Part shown: positions 6,001 through 9,000 of the stretch, piece after piece | Layout of the letters: each line of letters starts with the position of its first letter | How positions within the stretch are numbered: position 1 is the first letter of the stretch | Assembly: GCF_013167455.1 (NCBI RefSeq) | Contig: NZ_CP038328.1 | Direction: 5' to 3' (one strand) | Origin: Escherichia coli O157:H7 | Lineage (GTDB): Bacteria > Pseudomonadota > Gammaproteobacteria > Enterobacterales > Enterobacteriaceae | Length of the DNA stretch: 64,000 nucleotides | Program-made: the position numbers

Positions 6001-9000
6001 ACAGTTTGTGGCAGCAAACCTGCAGCCCACCGGTGCGGTCTGGCTGATGTCCAGCACCAATGCCCTGGCACTGTCCATGCGTAAAAATGCGCTGGGTCAG
6101 AAGGAATACCCGGACATGACCCTGCTGGGTGGCTCCTTCCAGGGGCTGCCGGTGATTGTCTCCCAGTACGTGGGTGACCAGCTGGTGCTGGTGAATGCCC
6201 CGGATATTTATCTGGCGGATGACGGCGGCGTGGCAGTGGATATGTCCCGCGAGGCATCACTGGAAATGCAGTCTGAGCCGGGCGGCGACAGTACCACGCC
6301 GTCCCCGGTGGAGCTGGTTTCCATGTTCCAGACAGGCAGCGTGGCCATCCGTGCGGAGCGCTGGATCAACTGGCGTCGTCGCCGTACTGCGGCGGTGGCG
6401 GTGATCACCGGAGTGAACTACGGCAGTGCGTCCGGCGGCTGAGTCTGATAAGGAGGACGGGAGGCGTGCGCCTCCCGTAACAGGTTATGGCAAAGATCCG
6501 ATATCTGCAGGGCACGCATGATGCCCGGGCCGGGGATATCCGTGATGTGGCACAGCCGTGTGCGGAGGTGCTGGTTCGCCTGGGAAAGGCGGAGTACATC
6601 ACGGTGCGACGTCCGGCAGGTCAGAAAAAGAAACGTGATGCGGAGCATGGCGAATGTGGAACCTTTTACGGCGAACCCGAAAAAACCAGAAATCAGGACG
6701 TGACGTAAGAGAGGCGGGCTGGACCAGCCTGTTTCAGGCGGTGGCTGAGCCCTTTTCCGGCGCCTGGCAGCAGGGCGTGAAAGCCGATCCTGAAGCCGTC
6801 CTCTCCTTTCATGCGGTGTTTGCATGTATTTCGCTGATATCCCAGGATATCGCCAAAATGCGGCTGCGTCTTATGCAGACGGATGCGCATGGGATACGCA
6901 GGGAAACGCGCCGGGGGGATATTGCCCGCCTCTGTCGTCGTCCCAACGCCCAGCAGAACCGCATCCAGTTTTTTGAACTGTGGCTGAACGCCAAACTGCG
7001 TCATGGCAATACGGTGGTGCTGAAAATCCGTAATGCCCGGGGGCAGATCAAAGAACTGCGTATTCTGGACTGGAGCCGGGTTGAACCTCTGGTGGCGGAT
7101 GACGGCGAGGTGTTCTACCGCATCACGCCGGACCGGAACTGCGGGATCACGGAGGCGGTGACGGTGCCTGCCCGGGAAGTGATCCACGACCGGTTTAACT
7201 GTTTTTTTCATCCGCTTATAGGATTGCCGCCGGTGTATGCCGCCGGGCTGGCGGCCACGCAGGGGCATCATATTCAGGAAAATTCGACGTCTTTTTTCAG
7301 AAATGGCGGCAGGCCGTCCGGGGTGATTGAGATCCCCGGCAGTATTACGGAAGAAAATGCGAAAAAACTGAAGAGCAACTGGGACAGCGGGTATACAGGC
7401 GAAAATGCGGGGAAAACGGCCATTCTGAGCAACGGGGCAAAATACAACCCCACGACGTTTTCACCGGTGGATGCGCAGACGGTGGAACAACTGAAGATGA
7501 CCGCTGAAATTGTCTGTTCGGTGTTCCGTGTCCCGGCCTACAAGATTGGCGTGGGACAACCGCCTTCCAGTGACAACGTGGAGGCGCTGGAGCAGCAGTA
7601 TTATTCCCAGTGCCTGCAGACGCTGATTGAGTCCATTGAACTGTTACTGGATGAGGCGCTGGAAACGGGGGAAAACGAGAGTACAGAATTTGATGTCACC
7701 ACGCTGCTGAGAATGGACAGTGAGCGGCGCATGAAAACGCTGGGGGATGCGGTGAAAAATACGCTTCTCACGCCCAATGAGGCCCGTAAACGGGAGAACC
7801 TGCCGCCCCTGGCCGGCGGTGATGCACTGTATCTTCAGCAGCAGAACTACAGTCTGGAGGCGCTGTCCCGTCGTGATGCCCGTGAGGATCCGTTCGCGTC
7901 TGCCGGGAAAACAGTTTCATCACAGCTGCCTGACGGCGCATCTGACGGTAATAAGGCAATCAGTGAAACAGAGCATGATGCGGTGAAAGCGATGTTCAGG
8001 GGGGATACTGAGAAAATGACGGAACGGGAACTGTCCATTATTCGTGCACTGGGAGAAGAATTTTCCACAGTGCTGGCGGATTTACAGCGCACATTTGAGG
8101 AGAAAATAGCCGCGCAGGCACAAACGTTTGAAGAAAAACTGGCTTCTCAGTCTGTGGTATTACAGAAGTGCGTGACGGGTGATGATGTGCGTCCGATGCT
8201 TGAGCAGATGGTGAAAGAGGCAGTGAGCCATATTCCTGTTCCGCGCGACGGTCGTGACTACGATCCGGATGTTCTGCAGAAGGCGGTGAATGATGCGGTT
8301 GCGAATATTCCGGTACCGGCAGACGGCAAAAGTATCACCCCGGATGATGTGCGTCCGATGCTTGAGCAGATGGTGAAAGAGGCAGTGAGCCATATTCCTG
8401 TTCCGCGCGACGGTCGTGACTACGATCCGGATGTTCTGCAGAAGGCGGTGAATGATGCGGTCGCGAAAATACCGGTACCGGCAGACGGTAAAAGTATCAC
8501 TCCGGATGATGTGCATCCGATGCTTGAACAGATGGTGAAGGAGGCGGTAAGCCATATTCCTGTTCCGCGTGATGGTCGTGACTACGATCCGGATGTTCTG
8601 CAGAAGGCGGTGAATGATGCGGTCGCGAAAATACCGGTACCGGCAGACGGTAAAAGTATCACTCCGGATGATGTGCATCCGATGCTTGAACAGATGGTGA
8701 AGGAGGCGGTAAGCCATATTCCTGTTCCGCGTGATGGTCGTGACTACGATCCGGATGTTCTGCAGAAGGCGGTTCTGGAGGCGGTGAGTGCCCTGCCGGC
8801 TCCGCAGGACGGGCGTGATGCCACGGCACTGGAAATACTCCCCGCCATTGACGATCAAAAATCCTTTCCCCGGGGCTCGTATGCCACACACCAGGGTGGA
8901 CTCTGGCGGGCGTATGAAAAAACGTACGGGATGCGGGGATGGGAATGCCTGGTTGACGGGGTGGCGGATATTGACGTCAGCATGACGGGTGAACGGTCGT

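Follow-up and report, generated by a model that had tools for sequence, protein, structure and literature searches.

An 833-residue portal reading frame in an Escherichia coli O157:H7 prophage is very probably two genes, joined and then cut short by slips in two G tracts

Why does a portal gene in an Escherichia coli O157:H7 prophage run to 833 codons, when HK97-type portals of solved structure have 396–431 residues and match nothing in this open reading frame (ORF) beyond about residue 420? The ORF (6654–9155, plus strand) lies in a 64,000-nt stretch of contig NZ_CP038328.1 (assembly GCF_013167455.1), referred to below as the window. The original prediction, made from the sequence alone, took its second half, with a set of 162-bp tandem repeats, for a dedicated C-terminal extension that doubles the portal. 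We could not uphold that view, since related phages encode everything from Met455 (nt 8016) onward as a gene of its own, which we call X. We are highly confident of the genetic anatomy, that is, two genes, a fusion by one additional G, a truncation by one missing G, and a repeat shaft of variable length. The complete reading, in which the joining is also an accident and X is a fibre of the phage neck, appears likely to us. The elements on which the argument rests are the following.

6654..8019, plus strand: the actual portal gene, of the HK97 family (454 aa where the alleles are split), identified by Pfam, TIGR01537 and PDB matches
7999..8004, plus strand: junction G tract, six G (G6) in the window; G6 places portal and X in one frame, five G (G5) leave two genes
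8016..9238, plus strand: gene X, 407 aa when intact, with ATG 8016 corresponding to Met455 of the fused ORF; phrog_1289
8016..8168, plus strand: N-terminal long helix of X (AlphaFold2 helix, residues 3–50, pLDDT 83–96)
8181..8828, plus strand: repeat array of 4 x 162 bp, or eight 27-aa helix-loop modules (Tandem Repeats Finder and model)
8817..9238, plus strand: conserved C-terminal beta domain of X with modules resembling carbohydrate-binding module (CBM) family 5/12; the window copy is cut after X residue 371
9124..9129, plus strand: second G tract, six G in the window against seven (G7) in the intact form (phages YYZ-2008 and 2851), a -1 frameshift

Residues 1–454 of the ORF belong to the HK97 portal family by a full-length profile match above the curated threshold. 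The Pfam model Phage_portal (PF04860) aligned over positions 2–321 of 321 with residues 54–382 (E = 9.3e-81), and TIGR01537 (portal_HK97) scored 349.4 bits against a cutoff of 112. The PDB portals 9lbn and 8cez (HK97) matched only residues 43–420, and, with the remainder encoded separately in relatives, the region from residue 455 onward is not part of the portal fold. The native portal end (...AMFRG-ILRK-stop) can be read in the window only in the +1 frame, as ATA CTG AGA AAA TGA at 8005–8019; its counterpart in the Salmonella phage FSL SP-016 is FLTK-stop.

To find relatives of X, a query made of the last repeat units and the terminal domain was run against 1.84 billion representative proteins. 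It matched 5814 cluster representatives at E <= 1e-3, of which 601 remained at E <= 1e-30; the best 150 had a median length of 364 aa, and only two of these carried a portal domain. Stand-alone homologues start with a short helical N-terminus such as MNERELSIIKALGEEF (also P0096); this sequence recurs in the window ORF at residue 455 (...EK-MTERELSIIRALGEEF). In FSL SP-016, the syntenic region encodes a portal of 451 aa and then, from an ATG that overlaps the stop codon of the portal, a "hypothetical protein" of 347 aa, and the residue-level alignment places both the end of the SP-016 portal and the start of its X exactly at window Met455. The same ATGA overlap of portal stop and X start was present in phages 1717, JLK-2012, PPompW, BP-4795, Lys8385Vzw and PAJU2. 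A separate X is annotated in SP-016, 1717 (gp60), JLK-2012, PPompW_699, BP-4795 and Lys8385Vzw, and ORF007 of the Pseudomonas phage PAJU2 matched the X profile with E = 1.9e-57. In the Rhizobium phage RHph_X2_26, the two genes are separate with no overlap. The two-gene arrangement was also found on metagenomic contigs, and X directly followed a related portal gene and preceded the Ad1 adaptor gene at seven loci (L003, L004, L005, L006, L090, L092 and L095). The Moraxella phage Mcat4 has a related portal and no X.

By its N-terminal helix, 27-aa P-x-P-x-D-G modules and C-terminal beta domain, the second half of the window ORF is a member of the X family that lacks the last 28 residues. In the intact frame, the X stop (TGA, 9236–9238) overlaps the GTG start of the adaptor at 9235, whereas the window frame ends early, at 9155. 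The window protein matched phrog_2271, an 859-position profile of the fused form, from end to end, and stand-alone X proteins matched phrog_1289 (331 positions); both profiles are labelled 'portal protein'. No portal domain was found in stand-alone X by Pfam or NCBIfam scans, and NCBIfam has no family covering X. The label of phrog_1289 appears to have spread from fused alleles, a carry-over that was also seen in AFDB protein names, and it is probably wrong for thousands of stand-alone X proteins. Precomputed Pfam labels on homologues (DUF4244 and TetR_C_35) were rejected as insignificant repeat noise (i-E 0.09 to 10). Searching the PDB with the whole fused protein and the X profile yielded the portal core and weak CBM or designed-helical-repeat matches, and no virion structure containing X.

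What joins the two genes in the window is a single nucleotide. We scored the junction in 86 loci, of which 80 were close relatives from IMG/VR and the others were individual phage records and the window itself; the portal/X frame could be assigned in 82, of which 33 were fused and 49 split. The junction sequence was CAGGGGGGAT (G6) in each of the 33 fused alleles and (C/G)AGGGGGAT (G5) in each of the 49 split ones. The G6 alleles occurred on at least four flanking haplotypes, and they include the records of phages 2851 and YYZ-2008. An intact fused protein has 861 or 859 aa. Located 11 nt 5' of the ATG of X, where SP-016 has AGAGGA, the tract is probably the Shine-Dalgarno element of X; a role as ribosome-binding site would explain both its conservation and its proneness to insertions and deletions. 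As both this element and the start codon are kept in fused alleles, free X may still be translated there from ATG 8016. The original prediction had named a frameshift between the portal core and the repeats as a possible refutation; such a frameshift exists in about 60% of the related prophages, but not in the window genome.

The ancestral and still commoner state is the two-gene one, with the ATG of X overlapping the portal stop (ATGA) and G5 probably acting as a ribosome-binding site within the last codons of the portal. A change from G5 to G6 at 7999–8004 moves the portal frame onto that of X, giving a single 861-aa ORF. In the window, a second slip, from G7 to G6 at 9124–9129, shifts the X frame after residue 371, with the loss of two strands and seven nearly invariant residues.

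The second lesion was found in four of the 86 loci, the window included. In place of the last 28 residues of X, the -1 shift yields 10 out-of-frame residues followed by a stop codon (9153–9155), which truncates X after its residue 371. Two beta strands and the nearly invariant G372, W375, P385, W393, L395, K398 and G400 are thereby lost. The RefSeq annotation (NCBI PGAP) labels the identical allele a 'frameshifted' pseudogene, and we infer that the window allele is a decaying gene. The predicted protein length of 833 aa is correct for ORF 6654–9155 as it stands, but this length is set by the one-nucleotide deletion and falls short of the 861 or 859 aa of an intact fusion. Secondary lesions were found in 6/33 fused and 1/45 split alleles (Fisher p = 0.04, for samples that are not independent); the other 27 of the 33 fused alleles were otherwise intact.

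Another portal-X fusion, 1237 aa in length (P0244), was observed in a distant prophage on 115-kb metagenome contigs (8001–11714 of L092/L093). It appears independent of the one described here. The head-module order is that of the window; the linker of the protein is long and acidic, and its repeat region is much longer. In the inspected linker stretch (aa 431–500), no G tract was evident. AFDB holds a further 1143-aa 'HK97 family portal'.

The repeat array was described correctly in the original prediction. Tandem Repeats Finder reported 8181–8773 with a period of 162, 3.7 copies, 97% matches, no indels and a score of 1053, and a second, independent repeat search gave the identical register, with units starting at 8181, 8343, 8505 and 8667. 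Units 1 and 2 differ at 5 nt, units 2 and 3 at 7, and units 1 and 3 at 12, while unit 4 is identical to unit 3 over the first 107 nt and diverges in the last 55 (30 differences), in line with the three near-identical units and diverged fourth that had been predicted. The array is in frame within the 833-aa ORF, downstream of an N-terminal HK97-type portal, and its acidic and proline-rich character also stood (pI 4.6 for the repeats, 5.0 for X overall). Codons that differ among units 1–3 do so mostly synonymously (10 synonymous against 2 non-synonymous between units 1 and 3), which indicates that the array is a coding sequence under protein-level constraint. Each 54-aa unit consists of two 27-aa sub-repeats of the form ...V..AV..IP.P.DG(K/R)..., eight in all (aa 510–721). 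The stretch 7900–9240 (1341 bases, including both G tracts) was 100% identical in several independently finished O157:H7 chromosomes, so the array is real and the assembly artefact that had been considered at the outset does not account for it. This stretch was matched at >=99% by 236 records, and the family was found in 1246 of 5426 complete E. coli genomes. A period-75 row in the Tandem Repeats Finder output was discarded as a poor re-description of the 81-nt half-unit periodicity. An antiparallel 385-aa ORF (8160–9317, minus strand) spans the array and looks like a by-product of the repeat lattice.

The number of units varies among E. coli prophages. The distance from the start motif of X to the GGLWRA motif of the C-terminal domain was 714, 876, 1038, 1200 or 1362 nt, corresponding to three to seven units. 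In the 78 loci scored for both junction state and unit number, three, four, five, six and seven units were found in 16, 51, 8, 1 and 2 loci, respectively; both fused and split alleles are among them, and the frame was intact in 71. The array is therefore an in-frame variable-number tandem repeat that changes by whole units. That the high identity of the units reflects ongoing recombination or expansion, as had been suggested, was supported by these alleles lying exact multiples of 162 bp apart, and such steps would be expected of unequal recombination or replication slippage between near-identical units. BP-4795 has five units; the Lys8385Vzw record has one, which may be an assembly collapse. 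Arrays of this kind occur throughout the X family, where counts of the strict P-x-P-x-D-G motif ranged from 0 to 18 and correlated with protein length (r = 0.66), and other lineages have near-identical arrays of their own (e.g. P0122 and P0151), which makes expansion and contraction a general property of X. We also considered repeat number as a ruler for the length of elongated heads and rejected it, as unit number showed no trend with genome size: the phage records with four-unit alleles are 44–62 kb long and those with three-unit alleles 50–65 kb.

What kind of protein X might be was approached by modelling the 407-aa X of phage 1717 in AlphaFold2, with an input of 113 homologues (mean predicted local distance difference test, pLDDT, 79.8). 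The long N-terminal helix of this model is a probable oligomerisation or virion-attachment segment. The repeat region was modelled as eight helices of 13–17 residues separated by 12-residue Pro/Gly/Asp loops (pLDDT 55–80), so that each 27-aa module consists of an amphipathic helix followed by a P-x-P-x-D-G-(K/R)-D loop. Residues ~270–400 form an all-beta domain (pLDDT 95–98) with 23 invariant or nearly invariant columns. This domain shares the small beta fold of CBM family 5/12 (chitin-binding type 3). In sequence, the match of PF02839 to E. coli X was borderline (residues 359–379, i-E = 0.015); among 114 X homologues, 25 matched at E <= 1e-3 and 80 at E <= 0.1, the best with 3.5e-6. The collagen model PF01391 gave no match to E. 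coli X; among the homologues, it matched 10/114 at E <= 1e-3 and 30/114 at E <= 0.1 (e.g. P0141 and P0149). True collagen Gly-X-Y runs thus take the place of the loops in 10–30 of the 114 homologues, which implies trimers. MuF domains (PF04233 and PF06152) were absent from Pfam scans of the window protein and of the 114 X-family proteins.

A role for X as a neck fibre is a tentative proposal, slightly short of an even chance in our estimate, and is drawn from the model and from comparison with known fibres. It builds on the helix, shaft and beta-domain architecture, on collagen-like variants among the homologues and a tip that resembles a CBM, on the fixed place of the gene between portal and adaptor, and on the absence of X in some relatives. 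X would be a trimeric, segmented, fibritin-like fibre at the portal/neck vertex. Its N-terminal helix would anchor and oligomerise the protein, the shaft encoded by the 162-bp repeats would set the fibre length or act as a spacer, and glycan binding or the nucleation of folding would fall to the CBM5/12-like tip. The fibritin of phage T4 (gpwac), a collar/whisker fibre with a 27-aa foldon, has a comparable plan of N-terminal attachment, a shaft of short helices with loops, and a C-terminal beta folding domain. Fibritin and X both seem dispensable, as the related portal without X in Mcat4 illustrates, and the position of X beside the portal and connector genes suggests that X is associated with the junction of head and tail. 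X differs in its C-terminal domain, which has ~140 aa with CBM5/12-like modules and no 27-aa foldon, and fibritin was not matched in Pfam scans of the window protein or the X family. Compared with fibres that have collagen-like parts and CBM5/12 (ChiC_BD) tips, E. coli X has helix-loop modules and no Gly-X-Y runs, its gene lies in the head/connector block rather than the tail-fibre block, and the C-terminal domain is where the protein is best conserved rather than most variable.

Two other phage proteins offer further comparisons. The P22 portal has a C-terminal barrel, an integral and conserved helical extension that projects into the capsid; the fused allele is alike in topology, but the extension in the window is a neighbouring gene joined by a one-nucleotide insertion. 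The MuF minor head protein gp7 of SPP1 is encoded directly 3' of the portal gene and binds the portal inside the capsid (PMC5576092). X is likewise encoded directly after the portal, but differs in composition, with acidic repeats, collagen-like and CBM-like parts, and no MuF domain.

We consider it probable that the fusion is an accident and not an adaptation. The accident view fits the trivial mutational origin of the fused state, the more frequent secondary lesions in fused alleles, and the Sakai prophages with the head module of the window, three of which (Sp6, Sp9 and Sp12) were scored defective for portal function and the fourth (Sp10) intact (PMC2669165). The portal-linked copy of X would then be mislocated by the fusion, which would be tolerated or mildly harmful, with free X probably still made from the retained start codon.

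Several points weigh against this combination of accident and fibre. Fused alleles are common (33/82, or ~40% of the sampled loci) and mostly otherwise intact (27/33). The record of phage 2851, presumably isolated as an infectious phage, carries the fused form, and the unrelated-looking 1237-aa fusion recurs in metagenomes from two sources. Taken together, these suggest that the fusion is perhaps tolerated or even useful. Attachment to the portal C-terminus would also put X inside the capsid, which sits badly with an external fibre. We must also note that the trimer and fibre claims derive from domain composition and a monomer model, in which the repeat region was predicted with moderate confidence only.

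The strongest competitor of the accident view, although unlikely in our judgement, is that the extension has been selected. The 861-aa protein would be a working portal with twelve X moieties hanging from its crown into the capsid, in the manner of the P22 barrel or of a tethered internal protein, their reach set by the repeats. The frequency and integrity of the fused alleles agree with this, as do the fused records of phages 2851 and YYZ-2008, the independent P0244 fusion from two sample sources with the 1143-aa protein in AFDB, and the tight coupling of the portal and X genes, which suggests physical association. Common and intact fused alleles, phage 2851 and P0244 are what would be expected if X normally sits against the C-terminal crown of the portal. 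On the other hand, a single G in a homopolymer is the only difference between fused and split alleles, and the split state is ancestral, being found in SP-016, PAJU2, the Rhizobium phage and metagenomic relatives. Furthermore, the portal domain occurs in only 2 of the best 150 X representatives, secondary lesions are more frequent in fused alleles and the window copy has itself lost part of the conserved domain, and the collagen-like and CBM5/12 make-up is typical of external fibres.

It is also conceivable, with a still lower probability, that X is a partner of the portal crown inside or at the mouth of the capsid, and that G5/G6 is a heritable, reversible switch between free and tethered X, both states being viable. 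Were this the case, the fused state of 2851 and the 1237-aa fusion would be functional, tethered X would be joined covalently to all twelve portal subunits, and repeat number would tune the reach of the conserved tip along the axis of elongated heads.

Programmed recoding seems very unlikely. According to it, ribosomes slipping on the G tract would produce portal and portal-X from one allele at a fixed ratio, with G5 and G6 as two settings. Precedents for recoding are lambda G/GT and T7 10A/10B, and inspection of the sequence indicated that a single tRNA-Gly slip on GGG GGG would restore the other frame exactly, in either direction. The G5 tract is followed by an AUA codon and flanked by AGG and AGA, all three being rare codons in E. 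coli, and the tract is kept in 82/82 E. coli loci despite polymorphism around it. This conservation, however, is already explained by a role in ribosome binding for X, and a slippery site is not conserved across two-frame relatives: the SP-016 junction reads AGAGGAT and has no slippery tract, and the portal and X of other relatives overlap by 16 nt or are separated by 5–17 nt.

An assembly or sequencing artefact, in the array or at the fusion, has a negligible probability: short-read assemblies do break or collapse at the array, most database proteins of the family are 'partial', and the single unit of Lys8385Vzw is perhaps a collapsed repeat, but the same 1341-bp stretch with both G tracts recurs unchanged in many independently finished chromosomes, and copy-number variants are exact 162-bp multiples with the frame kept.

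If the anatomy is as we describe, the "833-aa portal" of the window is two genes joined and then cut short by two homopolymer slips, and neither annotation nor modelling should treat such ORFs as long portals. A repeat-bearing "long portal" is already known from databases (phrog_2271 and RefSeq), as are in-frame variable repeats and homopolymer fusions or pseudogenes. New, relative to the literature that we searched, are the extension as a distinct, portal-coupled gene family and the fusion as a G5/G6 polymorphism; neither the fusion nor X was found described in work on portal extensions or repeats, on O157 prophage portal frameshifts or on phage 2851, and we found no described function or solved structure for X. 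The family occupies a fixed slot between portal and adaptor in phages of Proteobacteria, including the Stx1 and Stx2c phages of enterohaemorrhagic E. coli and D3-like Pseudomonas phages. A fibre that is coupled to the portal, varies in length and carries a carbohydrate-binding-like tip would be a concrete and cheap target for structural work, and the G5/G6 polymorphism is a natural experiment on the cargo that a portal C-terminus tolerates.

The head module in the window belongs to a lambdoid prophage of E. coli O157:H7, of the Pankowvirus or Stx1/Stx2c phage type. The counterpart of the portal ORF in phage YYZ-2008 has 99.4% identity, and those of the long-tailed Stx1a, Stx2c and Stx2a phages (1717, 2851, JLK-2012 and PPompW) have 92–98%. 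Two neighbours of the portal-X region bear on the comparison with other phages.

4505..6442, plus strand: prohead protease-major capsid fusion gene, a 645-aa ORF 5' of the portal; phrog_617, phrog_80 and phrog_10
9235..9561, plus strand: head-tail adaptor Ad1 (Phage_connect_1), with a GTG start at 9235; phrog_40

The order of genes is HNH endonuclease, small and large terminase subunits, the prohead protease-capsid fusion, a 73-aa ORF and the portal ORF, followed by the connector genes (Ad1 adaptor, head closure protein, gp10-like protein and tail terminator) and then by the major tail protein, tape measure, minor tail proteins, tail-tip protein J, Lom, a collagen-like fibre and a type III secretion system (T3SS) effector. 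The adaptor directly followed X in every complete context examined, and the order was matched in L004, L005 and L092. A difference from the HK97 family examples is that the capsid gene of the window precedes the portal. A gene combining Peptidase_S78 and Phage_capsid lies in the equivalent position in L092 and in PAJU2, and the capsid-before-portal order with a small ORF between recurs with X wherever there is enough context (SP-016, PAJU2, L092 and the Rhizobium phage). Elongated-head particles have been described from lambdoid prophages of the kind found in the window (PMC2669165). Since terminase, capsid, connector, tape measure, minor tail proteins and tail-tip protein J are all present as window ORFs, we make no claim of a defect in the prophage as a whole.

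Further along the window, the tail-fibre ORF with collagen-like Gly-X-Y repeats lies at 23968–25287 and is followed by the 291-aa T3SS effector (phrog_6583, 'Ibe') at 25699–26574. This effector cargo lies at the prophage end, just 5' of the chromosomal dacD (28767–29939). An IS66-family element at 45918–48251 contains ORFs of 133, 115 and 512 aa, the largest of which matched the IS66 transposase model NF033517. An IS3-family element of 1311 bp is present in two 100% identical copies (53723–55033 and 62567–63877), each with two ORFs (108 and 296 aa) and with terminal inverted repeats (TGAACCGCCCCGGG...); the copies are in direct orientation, 8844 bp apart, and flank the AMP nucleosidase gene (59150–60760). 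Lastly, the TonB-dependent receptor ORF at 41010–42632 matched only profile positions ~150–675 of haem/haemoglobin receptor models, which may reflect an N-terminal truncation or a miscalled start.

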